Source of the DNA: Alphaproteobacteria bacterium
Lineage (GTDB): Bacteria; Pseudomonadota; Alphaproteobacteria; UBA8366; CAVOAK01
DNA: 46,878 bases
Assembly: GCA_963693665.1 (NCBI GenBank)
Contig: CAVOAK010000002.1
Coordinates: forward strand, 1 to 46,878
Reading direction: 5' to 3'
The position numbers and the translations under genes are program-made. This document shows, one piece after another, positions 19,671 to 46,878 of the stretch. Below the pieces are notes generated by a model. That model did not search any database. It was not told the DNA's origin and saw nothing but the letters and a program-made list of their open reading frames with translations. Numbering within the stretch: position 1 is the first letter of the stretch; every line of letters begins with the position of its first letter.

Positions 19671-19818
19671 TCGCACACCAAGAAAGATTGAGTAACCGGC
19701 TAGGGTTCAAAAATCACTCCGTCGCCTGTTGCGTATCACGCAAAATCCGTCAAAGATCGCACTGCCGTCGGATACAGACTCTGTTTACAGAGCGGGAACA
19801 GGAACGGAAGCGCGAACA

Positions 19819-21066: not shown

Positions 21067-21090
21067 GCAAGGTGGCGGTGCATTGATGAA

Positions 21091-22359: not shown

Positions 22360-22360
22360 A

Positions 22361-24442: not shown

Positions 24443-26202
24443 CTGCCGCCCCTCAGACAGACGTCGAGCTGGATCCATTTCTGCTTGAGATCATTCGCAG
24501 CGGATTCGATGCAATTGCTGACGACATGGCGCTGACGCTTATGCGCACGTCCTATTCGGGCATTATCCGTGATTCGATGGATTTCTCGACGGCAGTCTGC
24601 GATGCGATAGGCCAGACTTGGGCACAGGGTCTAACCACGCCAATGCATCTCGGTAGCTTCTACGACGCCATGCAAACTCTTACAGCTCAGTACGAAGACG
24701 ACATCCATGAAGGCGATATATTCATTGCCAATGATCCCTACTTGGCAGCTGGACAACACCTTCCGGATATCTACATCATCCAACCGGTATTCGTAGAGGC
24801 GCAAGTCGCCGCATGGGCAACGACCGTGGCCCATCATTCCGACGTCGGTGGCATCGTCGCCGGCAGCAATGCGATCGGTGCAACGGAAATCCATCAGGAA
24901 GGTCTGCGACTACCGTTTCTGAAGTTCGTCGAGCGCGGCACGCCGGTGCAGCCGGTGTGGGACATCATTGCGGCCAACGTCCGCACGCCTGACAAAGTTA
25001 TTGGTGATCTACAGGCGCAAATGGCTGCCTGTGCGACAGCGGAACGCGAACTAAAGCTCTTGTTTGAGCGCTATGGTGCGGACACGGTCAGTAAATATGG
25101 CGCTGGCCTGCAAGACTACGCGGAACGTTTGGCACGCACTGAACTCAGCAAGATACCGGACGGTACATATCGCTTCGTGGACCACATCGATGGTATCGGC
25201 GAGAATCCCATTGCCATCGTCTTGCAGGCAGCGGTGACCGTTGCTGGTGATGGCGTCACCGTTGATTGGACAGGCTCATCGCCACAGGTGGAAGGCGGCA
25301 TCAATTCCCCTCTACCCTTCACAAAGGCCTGCGCCTTTACTGCGCTGCGGTCGATCTTTCGCGTTGATGTCCCAAACTGCCACGGCTACACCCGTGCGAT
25401 AGAGATCGTCGCGCCGATCGGCAGTATTACAAACCCTCGATCGCCTGGCCCGTGCGGAGCGCGCGGCATAACCGGTTACCGGATGATCGATTGCCTGTTT
25501 GGCGCTCTCGCGGAGGCAGTACCGGAACGGGTAACCGCGGACGGCAGCGGCGGATCGACGCTGCCGACAATTTCTGGATTTTGGAATGACAAACCCTTCG
25601 TCTTTTGCGAGACGTTCATGGGCACCTGGGGTGGAGCGGCGAGCCACGACGGACAGGAAGGCGTGCCGCATATGGGGGCCAACCAATCGAATGTGCCGGT
25701 TGAGATGATTGAGGCGGAGTATCCACTGCGAATCGAACAATATGGTTTTGTTGCAAACACCGGTGGATCCGGGCGATTTCGTGGCGGCCTATCCCTGATC
25801 CGCGAGTATCGCGTACTCAGCGAACATGCGACCCTAAACGTGCGCTCCGATAAACGGGCCTATCCACCACACGGATTGTTTGGCGGAAAAGAAGGCGCTC
25901 CCTCAACAAATATCCTGAATCCTGACGGCGAAAATCGTCTCTTGCCCGTCCTCCTTTCAACGCCAATTGCGATGAAAGAAAATGATGTCTTTCGACACAT
26001 CATGGCAGGCGGTGGTGGATATGGAAATCCCTTAGAGCGAGCACCTGAACAAGTGCTAGCCGACGTGATCGCTGAAAAAGAGACATCTTCACATGCGGCT
26101 GAAGCCTATGGTGTTGTCATCACGACAACTAACTCCCCGGCAGTCGACGAAGACGCAACGCGCATTCTCCGAGATCAAATGCGTGCTGCAACTGCCGATT
26201 AA
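24439..26202 (+). CDS. hyuB: hydantoinase B/oxoprolinase family protein (HyuB-type subunit)
   Basis: The N-terminal DPFLLEIIRSGFDAIADDM pattern is present. An ATGA start/stop overlap with hyuA suggests translational coupling. Confidence 0.9.
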   Translation: MTAAPQTDVELDPFLLEIIRSGFDAIADDMALTLMRTSYSGIIRDSMDFSTAVCDAIGQTWAQGLTTPMHLGSFYDAMQTLTAQYEDDIHEGDIFIANDPYLAAGQHLPDIYIIQPVFVEAQVAAWATTVAHHSDVGGIVAGSNAIGATEIHQEGLRLPFLKFVERGTPVQPVWDIIAANVRTPDKVIGDLQAQMAACATAERELKLLFERYGADTVSKYGAGLQDYAERLARTELSKIPDGTYRFVDHIDGIGENPIAIVLQAAVTVAGDGVTVDWTGSSPQVEGGINSPLPFTKACAFTALRSIFRVDVPNCHGYTRAIEIVAPIGSITNPRSPGPCGARGITGYRMIDCLFGALAEAVPERVTADGSGGSTLPTISGFWNDKPFVFCETFMGTWGGAASHDGQEGVPHMGANQSNVPVEMIEAEYPLRIEQYGFVANTGGSGRFRGGLSLIREYRVLSEHATLNVRSDKRAYPPHGLFGGKEGAPSTNILNPDGENRLLPVLLSTPIAMKENDVFRHIMAGGGGYGNPLERAPEQVLADVIAEKETSSHAAEAYGVVITTTNSPAVDEDATRILRDQMRAATAD

Positions 26203-28437: not shown

Positions 28438-29651
28438 CTATGCAACGTTATTTGCGATCCAGTTTTGAAAGTAATCCACGTTTGTTTCCCATTTTGGCCA
28501 GAACTGGACGCTGCTATCCGCCACCGGCGAATACCTGGCCGCCTGCTGTAGCTGCATGCAAGTGAGATCTTGGCTCCGGATATCCGTACGATCCTCGAAT
28601 TTTCTTGTCTTCCCAAGAAATAAATCCGCAACCGTCTCGCGACCCGTTTCGAACTCAGGGCCCTAAGCGGCTTCCGGTGCGAAGAAGAAGGCCATGGTCG
28701 CCCGTGTCCTGCCCGGTGCAATCGGTGTGTAGATAACCGGCGCATACGCCCGTCCGCTCAGCGTCATGGTTGTACTCGGCATCATGACACACGTTCCACC
28801 ACCCGTCGATTCCTTGTTCCCATTCCGTCCAGATAAAGTCGGGAGAACAATCTTCCTAATTTCGCGCGGTGGGCGGTTCTTAGTTGCCGTTAGGGTGTGC
28901 GTATTATCTTCAGCCAGCATCTGCGTATAGATCTCACCGGTCTCGAGATTTATCTCATCCGACATCTTCTCGAAGATGCCGTCATGCACCCAGACGTGAT
29001 GGTAGACTTCCCAGTTCTCCGGAACCAACTTCCAGTTGGCATCATACTCCCAGGTCACCCGATGGCCGATCTTCATGGCATCGAAGTCATACTCGCCAAA
29101 TTGACGAATACAACGCCGCCGTAAACGCCGCATCGGACTGGAACCAACCCATTCTCTTCCTTGCCGACGCTGAAGTTCTTGGAATTCGGCGTGCCGTCAA
29201 AATATGGCGTTGCGCGGAGGTTACCCTCCAAATCCCAAGCCCAAGCATGATAAGAACAGCTTAAATTGGATAGCCCCTTTTCGGGTTTTAGCAGAACGAT
29301 TGTCGCGCGATGCCGGCAGACATTATGAAACGCCCTGACGACCCCCTTCTTGTCACGCACAATGATCAGTGGACGCCCCGTTACCGTTACCGGGATCGCA
29401 TCTCCTGCACTCGCGATGTCTTCAGCGAAAGCGACGCCCATCCAGGTGCGCGGGGACAGGCGTTCCTGCTCCAGATCAAAGAACTCTTGGCTCGTGTATG
29501 CGGCAGCCGGTAGACCTTTAGCGGTCTCAATCGGCTTTTGAAGATTTGTAATCGCATCTTTGCCCAAGATTTCGTCAAAACTCTTTGTCACCTTCATTCC
29601 CCTTACAAAAAGATCATCCGGCACAGTACGAAGCGCATTTTTCCGCTGCAT
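28438..29651 (-). pseudogene. Rieske non-heme-iron oxygenase alpha subunit, decayed (frameshift near 29095 plus in-frame TAG at 28663-28665)
   Basis: The Rieske motif CRHR...CSYHAW is in ORF 29073..29651. The iron motif NWKLVPENWEVYHHVWVH is in ORF 28663..29133, in a different frame. After the TAG the same frame continues for 74 codons of protein-like sequence (GPEFETGRETVADLF...EDRTDIRSQDL...FQNWIANNVA) to a TAG at 28438-28440. Confidence 0.75.
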
Positions 29652-32396: not shown

Positions 32397-33419
32397 TTAC
32401 AACAGATTTTCTCGCGGAAGATCCGTTGCTAAACTGAAGAGATAGTCACCACATTCGCTGACAGCGGGAACCCGCCTAGTCAACACGGTTCCATTAGCGC
32501 CAAATTCAACTTCCACCGCGTTCGCGTCCGGATTATCACGGGGGTGCAAGCAACCAGCCTTCTGGCCAGCAACGACCTCATCACCCAACTCGCAATACGG
32601 TTCAAATAAGCCACTTACCGGCGCATGAACGTGATAATTCGGGCCGGGCATTTGAACAAAACGCGTCGCTGCAGGCTTAATTCCGGAGCCACCAGCGTCG
32701 AGGACACCCAAATGATGTAACACTTGATTGACGCCTCGTCGGCCAATTTCCAGCGCGTCAAGATTTACCGAACCACAACCGCCGAGTTCGGTGGCCAACA
32801 TGGGAACACCCTGTACATCAGCAGTTGCGAGCAATGAGCTAAGCCCCGGACCACCAGGAACGACGACAGTTAGCGGTGCGCCAAATGCCTCGGTGATGGC
32901 AAGTTTGCGTGCTTTCAATGATTCATCCCCAGCATTGCGCAAGAAAGCACAGGGAATGTATTCAGAAGCAAAGCCGCCAGAATGGAGATCCAGTCCTGCA
33001 TCACACATTGGCAAGATCTTATCATTGACGTAGTTCGCAATCGCCGGCGTCGGCGTGCCGGTTGGATCCCCTGGAAAGACGCGGTTCATATTGCCATCGT
33101 CCAACGGTGAGACCCGGGTAAATGCAAGAACAGCTGGATAGTTCAGTGCCGGCATGATGATAAGGCGACCATTCAAACTCGCCGGGTCAACCTCCCGCAT
33201 CAAATGCTGCAAAATGACTTGGCCTTCATACTCGTCACCATGTGTCCCTGCTGTCAGCAGGACTGTTGGCCCGCTGCCGCCAGCGACAACAGCAATCGGG
33301 ACGGGGATCATCCCATATGCATGGCGATTATCGGAATAAAGAAGGCGAAGGAACGATATCTGCCGCCCCTTCTTATCGAAGTCAACATCACAGGATATGC
33401 TCGACGGTGTCGCGCTCAT
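32397..33419 (-). CDS. succinylglutamate desuccinylase/aspartoacylase-family deacylase (DoeB-like)
   Basis: The zinc motif is GTHGDEYEGQ, followed by NMNRVFPG and DLHSGG. This pattern matches AstE/ASPA and N-acetyl-diaminobutyrate deacetylase relatives. Confidence 0.85.
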   Translation of the reverse strand: MSATPSSISCDVDFDKKGRQISFLRLLYSDNRHAYGMIPVPIAVVAGGSGPTVLLTAGTHGDEYEGQVILQHLMREVDPASLNGRLIIMPALNYPAVLAFTRVSPLDDGNMNRVFPGDPTGTPTPAIANYVNDKILPMCDAGLDLHSGGFASEYIPCAFLRNAGDESLKARKLAITEAFGAPLTVVVPGGPGLSSLLATADVQGVPMLATELGGCGSVNLDALEIGRRGVNQVLHHLGVLDAGGSGIKPAATRFVQMPGPNYHVHAPVSGLFEPYCELGDEVVAGQKAGCLHPRDNPDANAVEVEFGANGTVLTRRVPAVSECGDYLFSLATDLPRENLL

Positions 33420-33468: not shown

Positions 33469-34386
33469 CTAGCGCCCCCGAGACTCCGCCATCTTCGATT
33501 CCAGCCTGGAAAACACACGTGCCAATCCCCAGCAGATGAAGAAGTAAATGACAGCTGCCGTAATCCAGACCTCAAACACGCGCGTCGTCGACACAGCCAC
33601 CTCTACAGACAGGAATGTGAGTTCCTGAATTGAGATAAGCGAGACGATCGACGAATCTTTAATGGTCTGAATAAATTGATTACAGAGCGGCGGCACAATC
33701 TTTTGGATCGCCTGCGGAATGATTATATAGCGCAGCAGCTTGAATCTGGACAAACCAAGGCTTGAACCGGCCTCCCACTGCCCTCTGCCAACTGACTGAA
33801 TGCCCGCACGAACAATTTCAGTAACGTATGCTCCTTCAAACAGAGCCAAAACCATGACACCTGATAAGAAGTTAGCAAACAGGTTTGCCGGACCAAACAA
33901 TCGCTCAACGATCCAAATCGACGTCGGTCCCGCGTGATGGACAAAATCTTCAGCCCCAATAAGCGGCATGATTTGATCGCTGAGGAAGAAGTAGAAGATA
34001 AAGATAAACACCAGTGGCGGCATATTGCGGACGAACTCCACATATGCCCGACCAAGGAGTCGCAGAAACAAACTCGGGCTAACCCGAAACAATCCAAACG
34101 TAACACCCAGGACACTGGCGCACAGGATTGACCAAATTGCGAGCCGGATGGTGATGAAAAATCCCTGTACAATCAGATTTGATACCCACTGGCCCTCATC
34201 GGCATCCCATCGAAAGATATAAATTGGAATGGTGTTCCAGTCCCAATTGTAATGAAGGACTGTGTTGACCTGATTGTAGAAGTACCAAACTCCAGCAGCG
34301 ACAGCGCCTATGACAACAAAGTCAAGCCAATGGACCTGCATCTTGCCATCTTGCCGCTGCGGCTGAAATATTTCTGCGTATGACAT
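33469..34386 (-). CDS. amino-acid-type (polar amino acid / opine family) ABC transporter permease
   Basis: The EAA-loop is EAGSSLGLSRFKLLRYIIIPQA. The protein has multiple TM segments. Confidence 0.9.
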   Translation of the reverse strand: MSYAEIFQPQRQDGKMQVHWLDFVVIGAVAAGVWYFYNQVNTVLHYNWDWNTIPIYIFRWDADEGQWVSNLIVQGFFITIRLAIWSILCASVLGVTFGLFRVSPSLFLRLLGRAYVEFVRNMPPLVFIFIFYFFLSDQIMPLIGAEDFVHHAGPTSIWIVERLFGPANLFANFLSGVMVLALFEGAYVTEIVRAGIQSVGRGQWEAGSSLGLSRFKLLRYIIIPQAIQKIVPPLCNQFIQTIKDSSIVSLISIQELTFLSVEVAVSTTRVFEVWITAAVIYFFICWGLARVFSRLESKMAESRGR

Positions 34387-34419
34387 ATCAATTTTCCTGA
34401 ATGATCAAAAACGGTGGCT

Positions 34420-35271
34420 TTACCAACTCCGTTTTCGCAATCGGTATTCCATGTAATTGACCACCGACGAAAGCGTAATGGTCATTGAGAGATAGATTGC
34501 CGCGATCGTGAACCAGATTTCAAAGCTGAGGAACGTGTCCGCGATAATATTGCGGCCCTCGGTCGTCAGATCGAAGATCGCGATTACACTGACAATCGAG
34601 GAATGCTTAATCAAGTTCACGAAAAGGCCTGTCAACGGCGGCAACATAATCGGTATCGCCTGTGGCAAGACGACATAGCGATATGTATCACGCTGTGTCA
34701 GTCCAATGCTTGCTGCCGCCTCCCACTGCCCACGCTCAACGGACTCAATACCAGACCTGATAATCTCGGCAGCGAAAGAACCTTCATAGAGCGCCAATGC
34801 GATAATTCCCGTCCACAAACGGTCAATACCGATAATTGGCGAAATAACAAAATACATCAGGTAAATCTGGACCAAAAGAGGTGTATTTCGAATACCCTCG
34901 AGATACACCATCGCCAAGACTCGGCCCGCCATCGAATTCGACATTTTAAAGAGGGCTGTAAGCAGCCCAACAGCAACCGAAATAAGCACCGCCCAAGCAG
35001 CAATTTCCAGAGTCACTAGAACTCCGTGAACAAATTCACCCCAGACCAATTCGCCATCGACGTAGCGCCAGAAATATTTAGGGACGCGATACCATTGCCA
35101 GTTATAGCCCATAGATGCTGCGCCTCGGAGGGTCGCCCACAACATAGCACCGCCTAAAACGACGACCATCATTATGTCAAGCAACGGGGATTTTTGCCCT
35201 TTACGACCCAGTACAAACTTACGAAATACGCTAATTTCTGAGTGCGGATTAACTCCGGCGGGAGCTACCAT
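34420..35271 (-). CDS. amino-acid-type ABC transporter permease
   Basis: The EAA-loop is EAAASIGLTQRDTYRYVVLPQA. The gene is a paralogue of its neighbour. Confidence 0.9.
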   Translation of the reverse strand: MVAPAGVNPHSEISVFRKFVLGRKGQKSPLLDIMMVVVLGGAMLWATLRGAASMGYNWQWYRVPKYFWRYVDGELVWGEFVHGVLVTLEIAAWAVLISVAVGLLTALFKMSNSMAGRVLAMVYLEGIRNTPLLVQIYLMYFVISPIIGIDRLWTGIIALALYEGSFAAEIIRSGIESVERGQWEAAASIGLTQRDTYRYVVLPQAIPIMLPPLTGLFVNLIKHSSIVSVIAIFDLTTEGRNIIADTFLSFEIWFTIAAIYLSMTITLSSVVNYMEYRLRKRSW

Positions 35272-35701: not shown

Positions 35702-37090
35702 CTACGCCAGTAATTTTCTTACGCGCTTTTCAATTTCGGCTTCTCTCTCACCTTGAGCCAACGGTAGCGTATCGACGACAATCTTGCCAACTTTCTTGCC
35801 CAGTGCTTCCTGCGCCTTATGATCGTCAACGTTCGATTTGCCAACTTTGATGATTACGTCACCGGACATCGTCGGGATTAGTCCATCGGCATTTTTCACC
35901 GGTGCCGGCGGCTCAATGCCTTTCTTGAGATCGCGAATTCCACGCTTGAGCATCACCCGCAGCATGGCAACGCCCGTATCCGACCACCCCAAATGCTCGA
36001 GCTTATGGACAGTAATTGGGCCCTGACCGACCTGTGCTTCAAAGTCGCTCGGCTCACGCTGCCCCTCTTCGTAAGATCGTTCGCCCTCAGTTTGGCCGAC
36101 AAAATCAACCGAGTTCAGTCCAACTTTTGTCTTATCGCCCTTACCGCCCAAATCGAGTTTATCGCTGTAATGGCGCCATGCGATCAGCTTGCAATGTGTG
36201 TTGTCGACCGGCACAACCCATTTGGTGATCCCGGCACGCGGAAAGAATTTCTCGCGGTCGGCATCCTGATAAACGTCTGGCGGTTGCGCAAAATTTGGCA
36301 CCCACGACTCGGCTGTCCTAGTCCAAATGTATTCGTTCCAGCGTCGTGTATTTGTCAAATAAATTCCTGTCCGTTCCTTCATCCGGTGCCACTCGAGAAT
36401 TCCCTTGGCTCCCCATGCTGGATTGAACTGCGCACGCGTCACCCGCGTGTGCAGGAAGACGCTGTGGATGGGATCCATCGGGTTTTCGGTAACCTGCAGC
36501 CAGTTGCACGGCATATCTAAGGCGTACGGCACCATCTCGTCGCCCGGCAAGTCCATCGTATCGTAGATCGGAAATTCCGGTTTCTTCTCGGGCGGGCCCA
36601 TATAGGCAAAGACGAGTCCTTTGTATTCGAGCGCCGGATAAGCGCCGTGGGACAGCGTATGCCGGATCGGACTGTCGTCAGGTTCGCCTGGTGTCTCAAG
36701 GATCGTACCGTCCACGTCGAACAGCCAGCCATGATAGCAGCAGCGGATGCCGTGCTCGGCGACCACACCATACTCCAAGGATGTGCGGCGATGGCTGCAC
36801 TGCCTGTGCAGCAGTCCGACATCGCCGGAGTGATCTCGGAATACAACCAGATCCTCCCCCATAATGCGAACCGCCATCGGCAAGTCGGTCAATTGCTTCG
36901 ACATACAGATCGGCTGCCAGTACCGGCGGAGATATTCGCCGCATGGCGTACCCGGATCAGTGTGGGTCAACTCAGCGTCTTCCGTTGCTACACCTGATCG
37001 GAAATACCCATTGTAGGGTGTGTTCATCACATCCGTTTTTACATCCATCGTGGACAGCCCCATTTTAGACAACTCTTGATCAAGCTCCAT
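35702..37090 (-). CDS. Rieske (2Fe-2S) non-heme-iron oxygenase, alpha3-type (phthalate/KshA/OxoO-like family), with a ~80-aa Lys/Glu-rich C-terminal extension
   Basis: The Rieske motif is CSHRRTSLEYG...CCYHGWLF. The mononuclear iron motif is NWLQVTENPMDPIHSVFLH. The start codon is uncertain (several in-frame ATGs, no clear Shine-Dalgarno sequence). Confidence 0.9.
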   Translation of the reverse strand: MELDQELSKMGLSTMDVKTDVMNTPYNGYFRSGVATEDAELTHTDPGTPCGEYLRRYWQPICMSKQLTDLPMAVRIMGEDLVVFRDHSGDVGLLHRQCSHRRTSLEYGVVAEHGIRCCYHGWLFDVDGTILETPGEPDDSPIRHTLSHGAYPALEYKGLVFAYMGPPEKKPEFPIYDTMDLPGDEMVPYALDMPCNWLQVTENPMDPIHSVFLHTRVTRAQFNPAWGAKGILEWHRMKERTGIYLTNTRRWNEYIWTRTAESWVPNFAQPPDVYQDADREKFFPRAGITKWVVPVDNTHCKLIAWRHYSDKLDLGGKGDKTKVGLNSVDFVGQTEGERSYEEGQREPSDFEAQVGQGPITVHKLEHLGWSDTGVAMLRVMLKRGIRDLKKGIEPPAPVKNADGLIPTMSGDVIIKVGKSNVDDHKAQEALGKKVGKIVVDTLPLAQGEREAEIEKRVRKLLA

Positions 37091-37212: not shown

Positions 37213-37968
37213 CTAATGAATAAGAATTTGGCTCAAGAAGAGTTTCGTGCGGTCATTAGTTGGATTCGAAAAGAAGACGTCTGGTGTTGCTTTTTCGACG
37301 ATCTCGGCCTGATCCATAAAGACCATGGTATCCGCTACCGTTTTTGCAAATCCCATTTCATGCGTCACAACAATCATCGTCATGCCGCTTTGCGCCAGTT
37401 CAACCATCACATCGAGCACTTCTTTGATCATCTCTGGATCAAGGGCCGATGTCGGCTCGTCGAACAGCATGATCTTTGGTTCCATGCACAAGGAACGCGC
37501 GATCGCGACACGTTGTTGCTGCCCACCTGAGAGCTGGGTCGGATACTTACCAGCCTGTTCCGGAATATGGACCCGCTCAAGGTATCGCATTGCCAGTTCA
37601 TTAGCGTCCTTCTTTGCCATACCGCGGGCACGCACTGGAGCAAGCATTAAGTTCTCCAGGACCGTCAAATGCGGAAACAAATTGAAATTCTGGAACACGA
37701 TGCCAACTTCGCGGCGAACCGCGGTGACGTTCTTCATGTCCTCGGTCAACTCAATTCCATCAACACGAATCATTCCTTGCTGATGTACTTCAAGTCGATT
37801 GATGCAACGAATCATCGTAGATTTTCCCGAACCCGAGGGACCACAAACAACCATACGTTCACCAGGTTGGACCTTAAGATTGATATCCCGAAGTGCCTGG
37901 AAGTCGCCGAACCACTTTCCGACGCCTTCTAACTCGATAATTGGTTCCGCGTTTTCGTCTACCGACAT
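37213..37968 (-). CDS. amino-acid ABC transporter ATP-binding protein (GlnQ/HisP type)
   Basis: Walker [10 protein letters not shown], signature LSGGQQQRV and Walker [12 protein letters not shown]. Confidence 0.95.
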
Positions 37969-39149: not shown

Positions 39150-40184
39150 TCAACTCTTTGCGCGACGTTCCGCCATCGCAGAAGCGAAATGGATAGCCTC
39201 TACCATGCTCTGCGCGCTGGCTTCGCCGCGACCGGCGATATCGAACGCGGTTCCGTGATCGACCGAGGTGCGGATAATGGGCAAACCCAAAGTCACGTTG
39301 ACGCCGCTCAAATTCGTCCATTTCCCAGTTTTCGAATCGACTGAGAAACCGAGCAATTTGACGGGTATGTGACCTTGATCGTGATACATGGCGACAACGG
39401 CATCAAAGTCGCCGGCGACTGCCTTAACGAAAATTGTATCACCGGGCAGCGGTCCTTCAATTTGCACCCCCCGCGCTTGGAAGCTCTCGATCACCGGCCT
39501 CAAGACTTCGCGATCTTCTGAGCCGAACATACCGCCTTCACCGGCATGAGGGTTAAGGCCACAAACCCCTATTCGCGGATCAGAGATCCCAAGATCGCGA
39601 AGCGCATCGATTGTTAACCCGACAACGCGAATCACACGTTCCGATGTAACGCGCGACGGAACCTCGGAGAGCGGCGTATGCGTCGAGATATGGGTTACTC
39701 GAAGCTTGTCATGGGCCAACATCATGCAACTATCGGTGCTGCCTGTGAGTTCGGCCAAGAGTTCGGTATGACCGGCATAAGCATAGCCCGCGGCGTTGAG
39801 CGCCTCCTTGTTGATCGGTGCGGTCACAATCGCGTCGACATCTCCTGCAAGCGTAAGCGCGACAGCCCGGTCGATCGCCATGTAGGCTAACCGGCCCGCT
39901 TCGGCGCTGACGACGCCCAGCGAAAAATCCGCTTGTGCTTTGGCTGCTTCCTCAAAAGGCAAGCAGGGCCAACCGCCTCCCCGCTCTACCGGCCCAAACG
40001 TGACATCAAGATCATATAACTTCGCTGCCCGTTCGAAGCAGCTCCGCGTGCCCACTGCTATCAGATCCATATTTCCAGCGGCGACCGACGGGCCAAGTTC
40101 CTGCACTGCCTTAAGAAGCACTTCGGGTCCGACGCCTGCCGGATCACCCATTGTCAGCGCAATCCGCGGCCTAGGTGATGTCAT
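39150..40184 (-). CDS. pdxA2: PdxA-family 4-hydroxythreonine-4-phosphate dehydrogenase-like enzyme (PdxA2-type context)
   Basis: GDPAGVGPE is at the N-terminus, with HTELL and later His motifs. The start is trimmed to the ATG at 40184 (GAGGAGAA upstream). It overlaps the kinase gene end by 14 nt. Confidence 0.85.
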   Translation of the reverse strand: MTSPRPRIALTMGDPAGVGPEVLLKAVQELGPSVAAGNMDLIAVGTRSCFERAAKLYDLDVTFGPVERGGGWPCLPFEEAAKAQADFSLGVVSAEAGRLAYMAIDRAVALTLAGDVDAIVTAPINKEALNAAGYAYAGHTELLAELTGSTDSCMMLAHDKLRVTHISTHTPLSEVPSRVTSERVIRVVGLTIDALRDLGISDPRIGVCGLNPHAGEGGMFGSEDREVLRPVIESFQARGVQIEGPLPGDTIFVKAVAGDFDAVVAMYHDQGHIPVKLLGFSVDSKTGKWTNLSGVNVTLGLPIIRTSVDHGTAFDIAGRGEASAQSMVEAIHFASAMAERRAKS

Positions 40185-41310
40185 GACTATTCTCCTCAAA
40201 CTGGTCCAGAAGAGTACAAAGAAAATCTGCCTTGCCAAACGCCCCCGCTTTCGAGACGACAGTTAATCCATCCCAGTTGCCGCCTTTTAACTTGGAAACA
40301 GGAATGCCCGGCATCAATTCGCCTGAAACCGCGAGTGACTCCGCGCCCGCAGCGCTGACAAATCGGAATAGCGTATCGCCGCCTGCAACTAGGACCGTTT
40401 CTGGACACGGCAACTGCTTGACGGCAACAGCTAATGTCTCAGAAACAGCCTGGCTCGCGGCAGCGTGGCTCGTATGTGTCGCAAACCTAAATGCCAACGC
40501 CGACGACAGGCCCTGATCGATACGACGGGCAACAAAATTGATCGACGCACCGATGTCGTACTGAGATGCTGGGTCGGCAATGGCAATAAGCTCAGGATGT
40601 AACTTCGCGAGTGTATCCGTTTGCGCAGCGGATGACGGATGATCGCTCCCGACGATTATAAAGACGGGCGATGAGGGCATTTGGCGAGACTCATTGAACC
40701 TTCGCCCCGAAAGCGCGCGCGTGAGACCGGCGCTACCGCACCAAAGAATCGGCGGCGTCAATCCACGACCGGCCGCAACCACATTATCGAGATCTTCGTC
40801 AGTCTCGGCATCACACACGAAGATGCCGGAACCAGCAACGTCGTCGCTCCGCTTGGCGTGCCGAGCAACATGCCCAAGGGCACTCAGTTCTGCGTGTAGA
40901 TCGCATGCCAGTTCTTGCGGATCGCGTCCTGCATCTTGCAACACAAACTGCCGGCCATTTCGAGTAATGCGGCCTTGGGAAGGAAAGGCTGGCGCCACAA
41001 CGGTGCTGGCGAAGGCGCCAGTATCAAGACAAGCCGCGATCTCCTCTGCTGTATGGCCGCGCAACAATGAATCCAGTTTCTTGACGGCAACATCAGCCGC
41101 GTGCAGCACAGGCGTTAAGCCCGCCATTGCACCGACGGCATTTCGCGCGGACGCCTCGCGGGTCTCGGTATCAATTGCATAACTTCCCGATATGGGAGGG
41201 AGAGCACCGCCTTGCCAAAATACAGAAATCGGTTCGCTGACGGTCGCGAATGGGCAGATGGTGTCCAGAGCACCTGTCAGATCGTCAGCCAGCATACGAA
41301 CGACGGTCAT
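40171..41310 (-). CDS. four-carbon acid-sugar kinase family protein (DUF1537; OtnK/DtnK-like)
   Basis: The N-terminal ADDLTGALD motif is characteristic of DUF1537 kinases. The size (379 aa) and the pairing with a PdxA homologue also fit. Confidence 0.8.
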   Translation of the reverse strand: MTVVRMLADDLTGALDTICPFATVSEPISVFWQGGALPPISGSYAIDTETREASARNAVGAMAGLTPVLHAADVAVKKLDSLLRGHTAEEIAACLDTGAFASTVVAPAFPSQGRITRNGRQFVLQDAGRDPQELACDLHAELSALGHVARHAKRSDDVAGSGIFVCDAETDEDLDNVVAAGRGLTPPILWCGSAGLTRALSGRRFNESRQMPSSPVFIIVGSDHPSSAAQTDTLAKLHPELIAIADPASQYDIGASINFVARRIDQGLSSALAFRFATHTSHAAASQAVSETLAVAVKQLPCPETVLVAGGDTLFRFVSAAGAESLAVSGELMPGIPVSKLKGGNWDGLTVVSKAGAFGKADFLCTLLDQFEENSHDIT

Positions 41311-41441: not shown

Positions 41442-42866
41442 TCAGGCGTCCAACTCGTCAATATCGAGCGATGCGATCGCGCCTAGGGTAATTGGCTTAA
41501 CTGGCGAGCGAACTCGGAAGTGACCGACTGTTTCGACCGTAACGCCACGTGCCTCCGCGACGACGTGAGCGACGGAAGATGCACACTGCCTACCTTGACA
41601 TGGCCCCATGCCGGCGCGTGTGAATGCTTTGACTTGATTTGGTCCTTGGCAGCCAACCGCCACAGCCTCCCTCACCCGACCAGCGGTGACTTCCTCGCAA
41701 CGGCAGATCAGTGTGTCGTCGGCAAATTGCTCCAGCAATGATGCCGGTGGTCTAAACAAGGCTTCGAGAAATGGCCTAATTCGCAGATCCTGCTTCATCA
41801 CCCGACGTACGGGTACAGCCAGCCGATCTTGCTCCTCTCTATCGATTTGACCTAACGCACATGCGCTCTGCAAGGCCGCAAGCCGGCCCGATAATTCAGA
41901 CGACCGTGCGCCGGAGATACCGGCACAGTCACCAGCCAGCACAATCCCATCAATACCAGTACTGCCCCATGAATCAGTTGATGGCCGCCAACACTGCTGG
42001 CCTTCATCCCAGACTTCTCCAACGCCAAGTGAGGCGGCAAGGTGGCCGTTCGGTACGACACCAAAATGTACTAAAAGCAGGTCAGTCTCGAGCGTGTGCC
42101 GATGACCAGAGACGGTATACTCGACGCTCCCGATACGGCTATCGCCACGCGCTGCTAAATTACTTACGCCCGTGACGATTTGGACCCCAGCCAGTGCCAG
42201 TTCACGCTTGAGGGCCTTTCCTTTCGAAATATAGTCACCGGCGGTCAGCGCCATTGGCAGATGAGGAAGCGCACGCAGGTAGTTGCCCCTTGGAGTCAAA
42301 TCCAGGACGGCCTGAATGGCAACACCGGCACGGAGGTATTGACAGGCGACCAGAACTAGAAGAGGCCCAACCCCGGCTAGGACGATACCAGTGTTGGCGC
42401 CACCAACCCGCGCGCTGCTATCGGGCACCATACCCTCTTGCTTCAGCAGAATTTGGCCTGCGCCAACCGTCATGACACCGGGCAGCGTCCATCCGGGGAA
42501 AGGCACCGACCGCTCCATACTGCCAGTAGCGATTATGATGCGCTGTGCCTTAACCATACTTGCGGCGCCTGATGAAACGACACCAATATTGCGTTCAGGT
42601 GTGACGGCCCAGATGTCACTTTGGGCGCGATAAGCGGCATCGCTTTTTCTGAAGGCATCCACAAGCGCTGCGCCCTGCGCATAATCCTGCCCGAGAATTG
42701 TTGAGTTCGCGCTATCGGCATTCTCGATACCGCGGAAAATCTGGCCGCCCGGTGTTGATTGTTCGTCGATCAAAGTGACCTGCACACCCAACTCCGCAGC
42801 CGTTGTCGCGGCAGCAAGGCCCGCTGGTCCGCCGCCAATCACGACGAGTTCGCAGCGTTCGCTCAT
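41442..42866 (-). CDS. NAD(P)/FAD-dependent oxidoreductase with BFD-like [2Fe-2S] domain (HcnB/OoxA/LhpE-like subunit)
   Basis: VVIGGGPAGLAAA is at the N-terminus. The BFD-like motifs are CRCEEVT and GPCQGRQC. ATGA overlap with the upstream small subunit gene. Confidence 0.85.
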   Translation of the reverse strand: MSERCELVVIGGGPAGLAAATTAAELGVQVTLIDEQSTPGGQIFRGIENADSANSTILGQDYAQGAALVDAFRKSDAAYRAQSDIWAVTPERNIGVVSSGAASMVKAQRIIIATGSMERSVPFPGWTLPGVMTVGAGQILLKQEGMVPDSSARVGGANTGIVLAGVGPLLVLVACQYLRAGVAIQAVLDLTPRGNYLRALPHLPMALTAGDYISKGKALKRELALAGVQIVTGVSNLAARGDSRIGSVEYTVSGHRHTLETDLLLVHFGVVPNGHLAASLGVGEVWDEGQQCWRPSTDSWGSTGIDGIVLAGDCAGISGARSSELSGRLAALQSACALGQIDREEQDRLAVPVRRVMKQDLRIRPFLEALFRPPASLLEQFADDTLICRCEEVTAGRVREAVAVGCQGPNQVKAFTRAGMGPCQGRQCASSVAHVVAEARGVTVETVGHFRVRSPVKPITLGAIASLDIDELDA

Positions 42867-43153
42867 GGCTTAAGCCCTGACGCGCCAATCTGCCGACGAA
42901 TACTCATCCCTTCCTCGACCGTCACTAGACAAGCCTGACGATTGGCAACCCCATCGATTTCCATCAGACAGTCGAAGCACACACCCATCATGCAGTACGG
43001 CGTGCGCATCGCGCCTGAAACCGGAGTCGTACGGCAATGACCGAGATCATGGAGTAGGACTGCGGCGGCAACGCTCGCATCTACCGGCACAACAATCGCT
43101 CTGTCGTCGATAGTAACCTCAACGGTCGGTCCTTCACGCAGCTGTTTGAACAT
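42863..43153 (-). CDS. small (2Fe-2S)-binding subunit (HcnA/SoxA-N-terminal-like)
   Basis: About 96 aa from the ATG at 43153. The Cys cluster is YCMMGVCFDCLMEIDG. It overlaps the upstream DAO-type gene by 20 nt. Confidence 0.8.
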   Translation of the reverse strand: MFKQLREGPTVEVTIDDRAIVVPVDASVAAAVLLHDLGHCRTTPVSGAMRTPYCMMGVCFDCLMEIDGVANRQACLVTVEEGMSIRRQIGASGLKP

Positions 43154-44270
43154 CGAACCGGTCCAGTGAGAATGGATCGACACCCGGAGTGACATCCTCA
43201 CCAGCGATCCAGGCGGCAAGTTGTTCAGCATGAATGGCGGCCAGCGTGACCCCGCTATGGCAATTTACGACGAAAGCGTTTGGATGCTCGGCGGAACGTG
43301 AATAAATCGAAAATGTGTCCTTTGGCATGGGCCGCAACGCCCCCCAGGCGCGGACGAGCCGCGCATTGGCCAAAAATGGGAAGGTCCGAACGCCATTGGC
43401 AGCCACCTTGCGAAACCCTTGCAACGTTGTTCCCTCGTCGAGTCCAGCATCCTCATGTGTGTCGCCAAGCATAACCGTCCCTTCATCTGTTTGGCGCATC
43501 AGGCTAGTCGGAATGTCGAATATCCGGTCGAGCCGCTCGGTGATCAATATCTGCCCGCGCAACGCCTTGACCGGCACCTGCATACCGATCATCGGCCCGA
43601 GCCAAGCATTGGCGATACCACCTGCCAGCACGACCCGATTACAACCGATCTCGCAGATGCCCACCTTGAGGACAAATCCATCCGTCCGGAGGTTGATGTC
43701 GAGAACGCGGTGGTCCGGCAGATATCGCCCGCCAAAATCCTGAAAGCCCTTGAGCAGGGCTTCGTGGAGCATCAGCGAATTGACAAGGCCGTCAAGCGAA
43801 CTGTAGGTGGCGCCAACTACGTCGGGACCAAGGCCCGGCATTAGCCGGTCGAGGGCCGTCCGATCGAGCATCTCGTACTCGACGCCAGGGTTGAGGTGGA
43901 TTGGCTCGGCTTCGGCCGCGACCTGCTCGAGCTTCGCCTGCTGCTTCGCCATCTCGTCGTCCGAAAAACAGATATGGACCGCACCGCGCTTCGAATATGC
44001 GACATCGATCCCGGTGCGATCCTTGAGTTGGTCCGCGAATGCGGGCCACAGGTCGGTTGAGGTGCGAGTCCAACTCGCATAGCGGGGAAAACCCCCACCC
44101 TTACCGTGAACCCAAACCAGAGCGAAATTACCGCGGGCCGCACGAAAAGCCTTATCACCCTCGTCAGCTACGGCGACGTTGATGCCACGCTTTGCCAACC
44201 CATAGGCAATTGCCATGCCGACCAGACCGCCTCCGATAACAATTGTGTCGTATGCGCGCATGACCGCCAT
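43134..44270 (-). CDS. FAD-dependent oxidoreductase, DAO family (HcnC/OoxB/LhpB-like subunit)
   Basis: The dinucleotide fold is IVIGGGLVGMAIAYGLAKRGINVAVADE. The length is 378 aa. It starts 5 nt after the stop of the last Rieske gene. Confidence 0.85.
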   Translation of the reverse strand: MAVMRAYDTIVIGGGLVGMAIAYGLAKRGINVAVADEGDKAFRAARGNFALVWVHGKGGGFPRYASWTRTSTDLWPAFADQLKDRTGIDVAYSKRGAVHICFSDDEMAKQQAKLEQVAAEAEPIHLNPGVEYEMLDRTALDRLMPGLGPDVVGATYSSLDGLVNSLMLHEALLKGFQDFGGRYLPDHRVLDINLRTDGFVLKVGICEIGCNRVVLAGGIANAWLGPMIGMQVPVKALRGQILITERLDRIFDIPTSLMRQTDEGTVMLGDTHEDAGLDEGTTLQGFRKVAANGVRTFPFLANARLVRAWGALRPMPKDTFSIYSRSAEHPNAFVVNCHSGVTLAAIHAEQLAAWIAGEDVTPGVDPFSLDRFDVQTAA

Positions 44271-44275
44271 AGGTG

Positions 44276-45427
44276 TCAGGACACTCGGCGTAGACGGGGT
44301 TTCTTCTTCTCCGGCGTCAGATTTTTCGCCAGGTATTGGTAGATATCCCAGACCGGTCCTTCGAGATCAGCCGGTCCTAATTTGCTTGTTGTCGACATGC
44401 GAGAATTAAGGCCACGCTGTAATGACTCAAGTTTCTCTCTGTCTTCCCTATTTATTGTCTCGTAGAGCTCCAACGCACCCTTGACGGATTTACGCGACGG
44501 CTTCGGATCAAATGACGCAAACCCCCATCTGGTGACTACCTGATCTGCCGAGCGTGGCCGAAGGCACATATGGATGACACCGCTCCCGTACAGTCCAACG
44601 ACGTGCGAGGGGTAAATGCAAAACATCATGGACAAGCGTTTTTCCGCGTCCGTCACATCGTTATGATAGGGTTTCCGTTGCGGAAAATTGGGATCGTAAC
44701 CGGATTTATAACCGGTGTAGCCCTCACCACCTGGAATCTTTTCGCAGAGGCGCGTCGGCGTGATTTTATGCAACGAATTGATATGCGTCACGCTGAGGTG
44801 ATAACCCTCCATGAAGTTTTCGGTCAGACACTTCCAGTTTGTGCCCCACACGTCCTCATTCATGAACTGCGAAGTCATCTGCTCGGCATGATAGTTCTGG
44901 ACATAAGGCTCAAGGCCCTTAAGTCGCGGCGCCAGCGGCTTCGCTTTGCCATCCAGATTCACATAGAGGAAGCCGTGCCACACCTCGGTCGAAAATTCCG
45001 GTAGACGGCAGTTCTTAACATCGAATCCCGCGACCTTGTCCATATGGGGCGCCCGCAACAACTGGCCATCGTTGGCATAGCTCCATGCGTGATAGGGACA
45101 AACGAAATGCTTCTTGTTGCCCTTGTCCTCGACGATCACCGACGAGCGATGGCGGCAGACGTTTGAGAGCACGCGAACCTTTTTGTCCTGGCCACGGACG
45201 ACGATCAGCGGTTCGTCGATAAGTTCGGTGGTAAAATAGTCGCCAGGCTTCGGCACTTCCTCGACACGGCCAAGGCACACCCACTCCTTGCGGAAAATCT
45301 CTTCCCTCTCAAGTTCTAAGAATTCCTCGGACGTGTAAAACTCATTCGGAAGCGTTCTTGCTTGGCCAAATCCATCACCCTTGATGTCAGCCAGCGCTGC
45401 TTGAATCTCAGCTGTTGCGTTTCCCAT
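44276..45427 (-). CDS. Rieske non-heme-iron oxygenase alpha subunit (GbcA/CntA/Stc2-like alpha-only type), tandem copy 1
   Basis: The Rieske motif is CRHRSS...CPYHAW. The iron motif is NWKCLTENFMEGYHLSVTH. GGGAGAC lies upstream of the ATG. Confidence 0.9.
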   Translation of the reverse strand: MGNATAEIQAALADIKGDGFGQARTLPNEFYTSEEFLELEREEIFRKEWVCLGRVEEVPKPGDYFTTELIDEPLIVVRGQDKKVRVLSNVCRHRSSVIVEDKGNKKHFVCPYHAWSYANDGQLLRAPHMDKVAGFDVKNCRLPEFSTEVWHGFLYVNLDGKAKPLAPRLKGLEPYVQNYHAEQMTSQFMNEDVWGTNWKCLTENFMEGYHLSVTHINSLHKITPTRLCEKIPGGEGYTGYKSGYDPNFPQRKPYHNDVTDAEKRLSMMFCIYPSHVVGLYGSGVIHMCLRPRSADQVVTRWGFASFDPKPSRKSVKGALELYETINREDREKLESLQRGLNSRMSTTSKLGPADLEGPVWDIYQYLAKNLTPEKKKPRLRRVS

Positions 45428-45494
45428 CTTCAGTCTCCCAATACGGTCGGCACAATTAAGACAGCACGTCCGGCGTTCATTTATGCCGCATAAA

Positions 45495-46652
45495 TCAGGA
45501 CGCGCGCTTAAGCCGTGTCCTGCGCGCCGACTTCGGCGTCAGCATTCGCGCCATATATTGATACATATCCCAAACTGTTCCTTCGAGATCAGGTGGCCCC
45601 AACGGTTTACGTTCAACGTAGCGAGAGGCCAGCCCACGACGAATTTTTTCGAGCTGCACGCGATCTTCATCCATAGTCTTGTTGAATCCTTCAGTTCGCG
45701 CCTCCGGCGGACGCGCAGCGTCCACTTCGTATGATGACAGGATGCACCGATTGAACACCTCACCTGCTCCGCGAGGTTGCAGAGCGAGCGAAGCGGAGCC
45801 GTTCGATGTGATACCCACGGTATGCGAGGGGTATATCCAGAAGAACATACTAAAACGTCGTTCCTCGGGCGTCATGTTCGGATGATAGGGCTTTCGTTGT
45901 GGCGACTTGCGCGTGTAGTGCGCCTTGTAGCCAGTGTAGGCCTCGCCCGGCAGGATCTTCTCGCAAAGTCGCGTAGGCGTAATATCGTACAGTTCTTTGC
46001 TATGCACCGTGCTGAGGTGATAGCCCTCCATATAATTCTCAGCGAGACACTTCCAATTAGTCGGCCACACTTCTTCCTGGACAAGGCTGACCAACATGTC
46101 TTCTGGATGACGATTCTTAAGATAGGGCTCTAGGCCTATCAGTCGCGGCGCCAATGGCTTCGCCTTGCCGTCCAGGTTCACATATATAAATCCGTGCCAG
46201 ATCTCCGTCTTGAGTTCAGGCAAATGGGAGCCCTCAACTTTGAAGCCTTTGATTTGGTCCATGTAAGGTGCGCGCAAGAGCTGCCCATCATTGGCGTAGG
46301 TCCACGCGTGATACGGGCAGACGAAGTGTTTGCTATTGCCGTTACCTTCAACAATCACCGAAGAGCGGTGGCGGCAGACGTTCGAAAGCACGCGGATTTT
46401 GTCATCCTGACCCCGCGCGATAATCAGCGGTTCGTCCAAAAGCTGTGTTGTAAAATAGTCGCCGCGCTTAGGAATTTCAGCGACCCGCCCGAGGCAGATC
46501 CATTCTTTGCGGAAGATCTCTTCCTTCTCGAGTTCAACAAAAGATTCGGACGTATAAAACTCCGGTGGCAACGTTGTTGCCTGGCCAGGGCCCAAGTCGA
46601 TGATGTTGGCCAGCGCCTCTTTCAATTCAGCTGATATTGATTTCATTTTCAA
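45495..46652 (-). CDS. Rieske non-heme-iron oxygenase alpha subunit, tandem copy 2
   Basis: The Rieske motif is CRHRSS...CPYHAW. The iron motif is NWKCLAENYMEGYHLSTVH. It is clearly paralogous to copy 1. Confidence 0.9.
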   Translation of the reverse strand: MKMKSISAELKEALANIIDLGPGQATTLPPEFYTSESFVELEKEEIFRKEWICLGRVAEIPKRGDYFTTQLLDEPLIIARGQDDKIRVLSNVCRHRSSVIVEGNGNSKHFVCPYHAWTYANDGQLLRAPYMDQIKGFKVEGSHLPELKTEIWHGFIYVNLDGKAKPLAPRLIGLEPYLKNRHPEDMLVSLVQEEVWPTNWKCLAENYMEGYHLSTVHSKELYDITPTRLCEKILPGEAYTGYKAHYTRKSPQRKPYHPNMTPEERRFSMFFWIYPSHTVGITSNGSASLALQPRGAGEVFNRCILSSYEVDAARPPEARTEGFNKTMDEDRVQLEKIRRGLASRYVERKPLGPPDLEGTVWDMYQYMARMLTPKSARRTRLKRAS

Positions 46653-46681
46653 ATCTCCTATCAGTTAGCGCTGTTGCCCCA

Positions 46682-46878
46682 TCATGACGCCCGTTTAACC
46701 CGGCTCTTGGTAACCGTTTTCAACGAAAGCTTTTCAGCTAAATAGCAATTGATATCCCATATTGTGCCTTCAAAGTCAGGAGGCGCCAATGGGCTTCCGG
46801 CAACAGAACGCGACTTTAATCCTCTACGAACGCTCTGAAGTCTGGCCTTGTCTTCGACCATCACATCGGCGATCCAAC
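46682..46878 (-). CDS. Rieske oxygenase alpha subunit, tandem copy 3 (C-terminal end only; the gene runs off the window)
   Basis: The C-terminal sequence EDKARLQSVRRGLKSRSVAGSPLAPPDFEGTIWDINCYLAEKL...RVKRAS aligns with the C-termini of copies 1 and 2. Confidence 0.8.
   Translation of the reverse strand, partial: WIADVMVEDKARLQSVRRGLKSRSVAGSPLAPPDFEGTIWDINCYLAEKLSLKTVTKSRVKRAS

Follow-up and report, generated by a model that had tools for sequence, protein, structure and literature searches.

A stretch of 46,878 nucleotides (nt) from an uncultured marine alphaproteobacterium (contig CAVOAK010000002.1, assembly GCA_963693665.1), referred to here as the window, ends on a block of six genes on the minus strand. 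Three tandem Rieske oxygenase paralogues (Rieske3, Rieske2 and Rieske1, in this order) are followed by the genes for subunits beta, gamma and alpha of an opine-dehydrogenase-type flavoenzyme. On balance, we lean towards reading the block as a single operon for the catabolism of small, amino-acid-like, N-alkylated compounds, in which CntA-type C-N cleavage would be followed by an opine-type dehydrogenation and the Rieske reductase would be supplied in trans. Judged from its genes, the operon probably breaks down an N-alkylated amine or a betaine. A first reading of the window's sequence (hereafter the original prediction) had described the same genes as one tightly coupled unit and had proposed that the iron-sulfur subunits of the flavoenzyme themselves feed electrons to the Rieske centres. 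The gene anatomy given there was correct in nearly every detail, whereas the proposed electron transfer did not stand up to comparison with other loci.

Layout of the six-gene block

The six genes are tightly spaced or overlap. Rieske3 and Rieske2 are separated by 29 nt when Rieske2 is started at its TTG codon, or by 35 nt with the ATG start preferred by gene callers; the gap between Rieske2 and Rieske1 is 67 nt and that between Rieske1 and beta only 5 nt. Beta and gamma overlap by 20 nt, with a gamma start that agrees with the gene calls, and gamma and alpha overlap by 4 nt (ATGA). The list of open reading frames (ORFs) and the gene calls thus returned the originally reported spacings (29, 67 and 5 nt, and the 20-nt and ATGA overlaps), and Pfam matched the reported domain assignment of every gene. 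In Rieske2, for instance, both the Rieske (2.1e-21) and the Ring_hydroxyl_A (3.5e-18) domains were detected, together with the motif ENYMEGYH. The window cuts Rieske3 short. On longer contigs (L003-L008, e.g. L004 7586-8746; L numbers designate related contigs and loci) the gene starts ~960 nt past the window edge and encodes 386 amino acids (aa) with Pfam Rieske and Ring_hydroxyl_A domains. The tandem array announced as "at least three" copies is therefore real, and the longer contigs fix its number at three and no more.

From the spacing we infer that the six genes form one transcription unit. Between Rieske1 and beta, the 5 nt found in the window offer no space for a separate promoter. Promoter and terminator scans gave no signal above chance or shuffled expectation and were uninformative on the operon boundaries. 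Of the originally proposed unit, the co-directional block stands, and its core is kept in five lineages (see below), but the scans add nothing to it.

The Rieske oxygenases and the dehydrogenase trio

Most likely, the Rieske copies represent alpha3 monooxygenases that belong to the quaternary-amine group V and resemble CntA, as judged from sequence and modelled fold. In copy 1 the Rieske [2Fe-2S] ligands are C91-R-H93 and C110-P-Y-H113, which are invariant in 36 family members. The mononuclear iron ligands H210, H215 and D329 and the bridging E207 are invariant in the family as well, and align with H208, H213, D323 and E205 of CntA. The best solved relative by sequence was CntA (E 2e-38, residues 23-343); the alignments with Stc2 (E 1e-25, residues 25-216) and with aromatic dioxygenases were confined to the Rieske domain. 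An AlphaFold2 (AF2) model of Rieske1, with a predicted local distance difference test score (pLDDT) of 92, was compared with solved structures using Foldseek. Again CntA ranked first (template modelling (TM) scores 0.81/0.86) and Stc2 next (0.81/0.78), followed by aromatic dioxygenases with lower target TM scores (0.64-0.77). Hence, the originally proposed placement in the CntA/Stc2/GbcA group holds by sequence and by fold. No gene for a beta subunit of the Rieske type (Ring_hydroxyl_B or NTF2-like) was present in the gene tables of the window.

With CntA of Acinetobacter baumannii (PDB 6y8j, 6y9d) and the other enzymes of subgroup Va, the copies share the alpha-only Rieske plus Ring_hydroxyl_A architecture of ~380 aa, the Rieske ligands, the 2-His-1-Asp iron site, the bridging Glu and, in the Tyr203 position, an aromatic residue. 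They differ in an identity of ~24-25%, in the Cys pair of the CntA motif E-C-Y-H-C, which is E-G-Y-H-L here, and in most pocket residues, which could not be confidently aligned. Unlike CntA, they occur as three tandem paralogues with a clade-specific basic C-terminal tail and have no adjoining CntB-type reductase gene. An aromatic residue at the Tyr203 position makes a cation-pi contact with the quaternary nitrogen and marks subgroup Va (CntA, choline monooxygenase, OxyBAC), whereas the subgroup Vb N-demethylases Stc2 and GbcA/BmoA have Asn (PMC7948474). In the HMMER alignment D-N-Y203-M-E205-C-Y-H208 of CntA corresponds to E-N-F-M-E-G-Y-H in copy 1. The residue is F in copy 1 (F205), Y in copy 2 and F in copy 3, and across the family it is mostly F or Y, with I, G or A in a few paralogues. 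The group V fold is common to Stc2, GbcA/BmoA and HpbB1C1, but the Asn of Vb is replaced by Phe or Tyr in the copies studied here. This gives no support to N-demethylation in particular, which the original prediction had considered, and the copies appear nearer to the C-N-cleaving and C-hydroxylating subgroup Va than to the demethylases. They seem orthologous to no characterised enzyme. The GbcA equivalog hidden Markov model (NCBIfam NF058607) scored only 145 and 141 bits against a cutoff of 670 and covered only residues ~11-221, and Stc2 aligned over the Rieske domain alone; the cluster is thus not simply an orthologue of the stc or gbc genes.

The paralogues are 61% (Rieske1/Rieske2), 62% (Rieske1/Rieske3) and 55% (Rieske2/Rieske3) identical overall. 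The differences are unevenly distributed, with ~66-72% identity up to the iron motif compared to ~41-49% beyond it. A hand count in the original prediction, 119 identities in 151 positions of the Rieske half of copies 1 and 2, was reproduced exactly, and the stronger divergence that it described past the iron motif was confirmed. Because the divergence lies mainly in the pocket half, the three copies probably take different substrates or successive intermediates. All three end in a basic tail of the pattern x-L-[R/K]-R-[A/V]-S (RLRRVS, RLKRAS and RVKRAS), another feature already pointed out from the sequence. In the closely related clade (L015-L034) the strict pattern was found in 13 of 26 proteins, or in about two thirds when near variants are included; among homologues of ~50% identity it was seen once in 62. 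The tail is disordered in the AF2 model (pLDDT 51-62) and could be a docking or sorting element.

The three genes downstream of Rieske1 appear to encode a complex of the flavin-containing opine dehydrogenase (OpnDH) or D-hydroxyproline dehydrogenase (D-HypDH) type, an assignment based on gene order, overlaps, cofactor motifs and the identity of alpha to Nox/Oox-type alpha subunits. Enzymes of the OpnDH, D-HypDH and hydrogen cyanide (HCN) synthase type are encoded in the order B-C-A with overlapping ORFs, as in PpOdhB-C-A (PMC4575208). The catalytic beta subunit (OdhB/NoxB/HcnC-like) contains a GxGxxG motif at residue 13 (G13-G-G-L-V-G) and the FMN-site motif R307-A-W, and its top PDB matches were glycine oxidase and SoxB. 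In gamma (OdhC/HcnA-like) the cysteines are arranged as C54-X4-C59-X2-C62-X12-C75, in line with the described Cys-X4-Cys-X2-Cys-X11-12-Cys (PMC4575208). Alpha (OdhA/NoxA/OoxA/HcnB-like) has the ADP-binding motif G11-G-G-P-A-G and the cysteines C388-X-C390-X32-C423-X4-C428, all four invariant in the alignment of alpha homologues (A2). Its top PDB matches were the alpha subunit of P. horikoshii PDH1 (1y56_A) and SoxA, with AhpF and TrxR also found; at E<=1e-5 no ferredoxin reductase of the BphA4/TodA type was matched in the PDB, and Pfam detected no Reductase_C domain. Alpha shares 42.7% identity, across 99% of its length, with the product of an alpha gene in a noc/occ-type region of an R. rhizogenes pTi plasmid, a region that also contains ABC transporter, arginase-family and octopine/nopaline dehydrogenase-family genes. 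It is 45-50% identical to the alphas of plasmid operons of Azospirillum, Acaryochloris and Leisingera; the catabolic operons of Azospirillum and Leisingera also encode transporters and RidA proteins.

The trio thus shares beta-gamma-alpha order, overlapping ORFs and cofactor motifs with OdhABC (P. putida, B. japonicum), Nox/Oox, D-HypDH and HcnABC, and the architecture of opine oxidase, HCN synthase and D-HypDH recognised at the outset was borne out by the motifs of all three subunits. It differs from these systems in several respects. Rieske genes precede it, an arrangement seen in none of 83 other trio loci; its surroundings contain no gene of opine synthase-like, arginase or LysR type; and the spacing between C-X-C and C-X4-C in alpha is 32 residues, compared to 15-20 as written for the type (PMC4575208). 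The window alpha further carries an insertion of nine residues, SSARVGGAN (residues ~150-160, ~42380-42415), before a second nucleotide-binding-like motif, G-x-G-P-L-L. The insertion is missing even from the 91% orthologue in L095.

The anatomy of the genes, their families, the motifs and the conserved core are established here; a shared pathway, the order of its steps, the class of its substrate and a reductase acting in trans are what we infer, as follows. Electrons of the reduced Rieske [2Fe-2S] cluster (C91/H93/C110/H113) would travel via Glu207 and reach, in the adjacent subunit, the mononuclear iron (H210/H215/D329), which would hydroxylate the carbon beside a charged nitrogen held by the aromatic residue 205. 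Breakdown of the resulting hemiaminal would cleave the C-N bond or remove an alkyl group. The trio, whose beta and alpha subunits would each bind FAD, with FMN at their interface and [2Fe-2S] clusters in gamma and alpha, would then act on the secondary amine or D-amino/imino acid so formed, and the imine produced by this oxidation would be hydrolysed. The electrons of the trio would enter the respiratory chain. Two electrons per Rieske turnover would come from NAD(P)H, passed on by a ferredoxin or FNR-type reductase whose gene would lie elsewhere and which would serve the many Rieske paralogues of the lineage. The logic is that of the hpb route, where an N-alkylated amino acid is first attacked by a Rieske oxygenase and the product is then converted by a flavoenzyme (PMC3950512). 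In the hpb and gbc systems, however, the reductase gene (HpbC1, GbcB) adjoins the oxygenase gene, whereas none was found here in the window and the next 8.5 kilobases (kb), and the window showed neither an HpbD epimerase nor an HpbA demethylase.

Conservation of the core and supply of electrons

A scan for the Rieske family, with one genome taken per species, turned up 299 relatives, and 77 loci were kept for ORF calling and phmmer searches. The unit Rieske1-beta-gamma-alpha was found in five uncultured lineages, namely the window and those represented by L095 (91% identity), L015 (85%), L016 (84%) and L017 (79%). The full arrangement of three copies and trio is intact in L016 and is restricted to close relatives. 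In L015 Rieske2 is frameshifted, in L017 a single copy precedes the trio, and in L095 the upstream copy is broken, leaving one intact copy before the trio. The spacing between Rieske1 and beta is at most 14 nt in L095 and 56-125 nt in L015, L016 and L017. The genes downstream of the core also differ among these lineages. Gene order, which the original prediction had listed as a check, is thus conserved for the core while the flanks change. The conserved unit is Rieske1-beta-gamma-alpha, which favours a functional link between oxygenase and dehydrogenase, although the clade is narrow.

It is nevertheless conceivable, though we consider it unlikely, that two independent modules lie side by side, an expanded and mobile Rieske array having come to rest upstream of an ordinary opine or imino-acid dehydrogenase operon that serves an unrelated pathway. 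The Rieske family has undergone a lineage-specific expansion to ~7-12 copies per metagenome-assembled genome (MAG) in CAXXSU01, CBDCIT01 and CAYQNO01 (L015-L034). These copies occur in many contexts, frequently in tandem pairs and close to transposases, and the trio is found without a Rieske gene in all 83 other loci. The adjacency is seen only in lineages of at least 79% identity, and the 56-125 nt in three of them would be compatible with separate units. However, Rieske1-beta-gamma-alpha has stayed intact while both flanks were lost, broken or replaced in the very same lineages, and the 5 nt of the window have no room for a promoter of its own. Proximity to DAO-family amine oxidoreductases is also seen for other members of the family: in L096/L097 a 73% paralogue and a 417-aa DAO gene are oriented divergently, and soxB/soxA-like genes are found close to several homologues (L068, L076, L080, L081, L084).

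Copies in the same position are more similar between lineages than the paralogues are to each other. Between the window and L016, positional orthologues are 84, 82 and 76% identical (copies 1, 2 and 3; the Rieske2 orthologue, of 82% identity, lies at 8732-9928 in L016), compared to 55-62% between paralogues. Thus, the triplication is old and the copies have been maintained. It may be asked whether the three products assemble into a mixed trimer, rather than three homotrimers, which would let one particle carry out successive oxidations of a single substrate. The enzyme type works as a trimer with electron transfer between subunits (PMC7948474), the three paralogues appear to be co-transcribed, all three positional orthologues are kept in L016, and the better conserved half (~66-72% vs ~41-49%) is the Rieske half, to which much of the contact between subunits belongs. 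Yet close relatives make do with one intact copy (L017, L095) or two (L015) beside the same trio, other members of the family occur singly, and a better-conserved Rieske half is also usual among homotrimeric paralogues. A mixed trimer therefore seems quite improbable.

As stated originally, the window holds no reductase for the Rieske enzymes: in the Pfam gene tables for all 46.9 kb no FNR-type reductase, plant-type ferredoxin or flavodoxin gene was found, and phmmer searches with two FNR+Fer2 reductases gave no reductase match. The contig was also followed to the right, where such a gene might have continued the operon, and the 8.5 kb beyond the window edge (L004 1-8550) contain neither a reductase nor a ferredoxin gene. 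Two candidates were rejected. A pair of split PNPOx-like ORFs upstream of Rieske3, considered as a flavin reductase, scored 17.6 bits in Pfam, below threshold, and the ORF lies in two frames. An FNR+Fer2 gene in L022 (same MAG as L017), at a distance of 9 kb to a paralogue, is a member of a 427-aa family that is widespread and present in many phyla, and its 80% orthologue adjoins an unrelated 495-aa protein; it was not accepted as evidence for a cognate reductase.

Among 80 metagenomic and three plasmid trio loci (alpha 37-52% identity), none of the 83 has a Rieske or FNR-type reductase gene within 8 kb. Because no Rieske gene accompanies it there, the trio appears to be a widespread autonomous dehydrogenase module that did not evolve as a Rieske reductase. 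Several homologues of the Rieske proteins with ~50% identity, in turn, lie beside a VanA-like Rieske gene and a reductase with FAD_binding_6, NAD_binding_1 and Fer2 domains (L001, L045, L051, L055, L063), which indicates that the usual donor of the family is conventional. In two gammaproteobacterial MAGs (L075 3044-5605 and L091 8508-11072) the genes for a VanA-like Rieske protein, a family homologue and a plant-type ferredoxin of 109-112 aa mutually overlap and are followed by a TonB-dependent receptor gene; this looks like a two-oxygenase, one-ferredoxin operon. In the related MAGs the ~7-12 family copies stand in many contexts and hardly any has a reductase beside it, a pattern that would suit a common donor in trans. 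Rieske oxygenases of the two-component kind can often work with reductases that are not their own (PMC12445004). The reductase is most likely encoded elsewhere and not replaced by the flavoenzyme. Its absence from 55 kb is weak evidence for a reductase-free system, given that the trio is autonomous elsewhere, that relatives of the Rieske proteins are paired with a reductase or ferredoxin and that related MAGs contain many family copies without a reductase.

The flow of electrons envisaged by the original prediction would dispense with a separate reductase. Spelled out, the Rieske clusters would be reduced by the [2Fe-2S] clusters of gamma and/or of the alpha BFD domain, with electrons from the amine substrate or from alpha-bound NAD(P)H. 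Such direct coupling would agree with the missing reductase in the window and the 8.5 kb beyond, with the mere 5 nt between the Rieske1 stop and the beta start, and with the fold of gamma, a member of the plant-ferredoxin-type Fer2_4 family and broadly like the Fer2 donors of L075 and L091. Enzymes of the OpnDH type are dye-linked; they use neither NAD(P)+ nor O2 but reduce one-electron acceptors, among them cytochrome c and ferricyanide, and their natural acceptor is not established (PMC4575208). On the other hand, the trio is autonomous and Rieske-free at 83 of 83 other loci, the family homologues have conventional donors, and the copies in related MAGs that have neither trio nor reductase beside them need a trans-acting donor anyway. 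Two further Rieske genes of other types in the window are likewise without a partner reductase. Alpha lacks a BphA4/TodA match and a Reductase_C domain, and NAD(P) is not used by OpnDH. Finally, apart from the insertion in the window alpha, missing in its closest relatives, no sequence feature is specific to the Rieske-linked trios. Direct coupling is thus highly improbable. The same holds for its strongest form, a self-priming, reductase-independent system with co-transcribed Rieske oxygenases as the electron sink of an opine-dehydrogenase-type complex, to which we give very little credence; electrons withdrawn from the amine product would there return to the oxygenase by way of the [2Fe-2S] centres of gamma or BFD. 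The conserved disordered basic tail (RLRRAS-like) could then serve to dock the trio as donor or a donor shared by many copies.

Several points also weigh against the catabolic operon with a reductase in trans that we prefer. The adjacency of Rieske genes and trio is confined to one narrow clade, so that common descent could account for some of its conservation. The assignment to Va rather than Vb hangs on one signature position, at an identity to CntA of ~24-25% and with a weak pocket alignment past the iron motif. Electron delivery to the respiratory chain is an assumption, since the physiological acceptor of OpnDH-type enzymes is not established. The organism's own reductase was not found in the ~57 kb read of its 149-kb contig.

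In the literature searched we found no precedent for a direct transfer from such iron-sulfur subunits to a Rieske centre, and no described operon that joins a Rieske oxygenase with an opine oxidase or D-HypDH. The nearest likeness is TsaMBCD, in which the pathway dehydrogenases TsaC and TsaD regenerate NADH for the Rieske oxygenase TsaM within the same operon (PMC10579966). There the coupling is indirect, through free NADH and the normal reductase TsaB, whereas OpnDH-type enzymes do not reduce NAD(P)+ (PMC4575208). The combination of Rieske genes and trio, the expanded clade and the conserved tail are undescribed in that literature, each part being a new member of a known family. As it stands, the locus is an uncharacterised, conventional-looking catabolic operon. 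What becomes of carnitine, choline, betaines and other abundant nitrogen osmolytes is controlled by group V Rieske oxygenases, of which, to our knowledge, only a handful have been characterised. The locus defines a distinct and strongly expanded clade in uncultured marine Alphaproteobacteria, ~24-25% identical to CntA, and the genetic link of one of its members to an opine-type dehydrogenase offers a handle for the discovery of a new substrate and pathway. Were direct coupling true after all, unlikely as it is, it would represent a new class of Rieske electron supply and reveal the natural acceptor of the dye-linked opine and D-hydroxyproline dehydrogenases.

Neighbouring genes and gene decay

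The features of the window are collected in Table 1.

Table 1. Positions of the six-gene block and of neighbouring features in the window.
Feature	Position (strand)	Size	Assignment or remark
Rieske copy 3, 3' end	46682..46878 (-)	C-terminal 60-64 codons in window	ORF and C-terminal tail
Rieske copy 2	45495..46652 (-)	383 aa from ATG 46646, 385 aa from TTG 46652
Rieske copy 1	44276..45427 (-)	383 aa	Copy always adjoining the dehydrogenase genes
C-terminal tails	44276-44293, 45495-45512, 46682-46699		Copies 1, 2 and 3
Beta subunit gene	43134..44270 (-)	378 aa	DAO-family FAD enzyme; Pfam DAO 8.8e-52
Gamma subunit gene	42863..43153 (-)	96 aa	Fer2_4 [2Fe-2S]; Pfam Fer2_4 1.3e-21
Alpha subunit gene	41442..42866 (-)	474 aa	Pyr_redox_2 FAD domain and C-terminal BFD-type [2Fe-2S]/SO_alpha_A3 (Pfam)
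DUF1537-type acid-sugar kinase gene	40171-41310 (-)		Pfam/NCBIfam; 131-nt gap downstream of trio
PdxA-like dehydrogenase gene (4-phospho-acid-sugar type)	39150-40184 (-)		Pfam/NCBIfam; overlaps the DUF1537 kinase gene
Fourth Rieske oxygenase gene	35702-37090 (-)	462 aa	LigXa_C-like
Genes grouped with the fourth Rieske gene	37213-37968, 33469-35271, 32397-33419
Fifth Rieske gene, in two frames	28663-29133 and 29073-29651 (-)		Rieske-domain ORF and Ring_hydroxyl_A ORF
Creatinase/peptidase M24, DAO-family and hydantoinase A and B genes	19729-26202 (+)

Directly downstream of the trio lie a DUF1537-type kinase gene, whose top NCBIfam match, D-threonate kinase, was under cutoff, and a PdxA-like dehydrogenase gene. 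Such genes form a known two-gene module of C4 acid-sugar catabolism. The pair follows the trio only in the window lineage; it is absent from the same position in L015, L016 and L017, and a 126-aa remnant is left in L095. It is probably a separate module outside the conserved core. The idea that it belongs to the same pathway, for example by processing a C4 acid released by CntA-type cleavage, was dropped because relatives with the core either lack the pair or retain it in decayed form.

The fourth Rieske gene is located within an EhuA-like amino-acid ABC transporter operon, beside an AstE/AspA-family gene. This arrangement is kept in L095, L015 and L016, where an extra Rieske gene of 480 aa also lies on the opposite strand directly after the trio. 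The fifth, frameshifted Rieske gene is either a pseudogene or an assembly error. The row of genes at 19729-26202 resembles a catabolic set of the N-methylhydantoin/creatinine type or of the oxoprolinase type, making the window as a whole rich in amine and amide catabolism. In L009-L011, copies of the Rieske family are bordered by SnoaL_4 (NTF2-like) genes, in arrays of four and of three; the NTF2-like fold is that of Rieske beta subunits.

The exact Rieske1 protein is present on 15 public contigs, two of them long (JGI 3300010883, 40.8 kb; ENA ERZ27247691 k141_128445, 148.9 kb). A megablast search of the 5.4-kb region against plasmids gave no match, and the region does not appear to be a known plasmid-borne cluster. 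The best plasmid matches of Rieske1 by tblastn were only ~52% identical, came from Rhodobacterales and stood in unrelated contexts. Rfam gave no match on the window or on L004.

Upstream of Rieske3, L004 contains ~470 nt of non-coding sequence, decayed gene fragments, a fused ABC exporter gene, CoA-transferase genes and a MatE fragment. The decay in this contig (6458-7485) lies 0.1-1.1 kb upstream of Rieske3, ~1.1-2.1 kb past the right window edge. It includes what is left (101 aa) of a HAMP/cyclase protein whose intact form, in L016 (4265-6142), has 625 aa, as well as the PNPOx-like ORF split over two frames. Other examples are the broken Rieske copy and the DUF1537 remnant of L095 (1342-2508 and 8078-8458) and the frameshifted Rieske2 of L015 (8755-9928). 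Such widespread decay suggests a genome under relaxed selection, possibly that of a host-associated organism.

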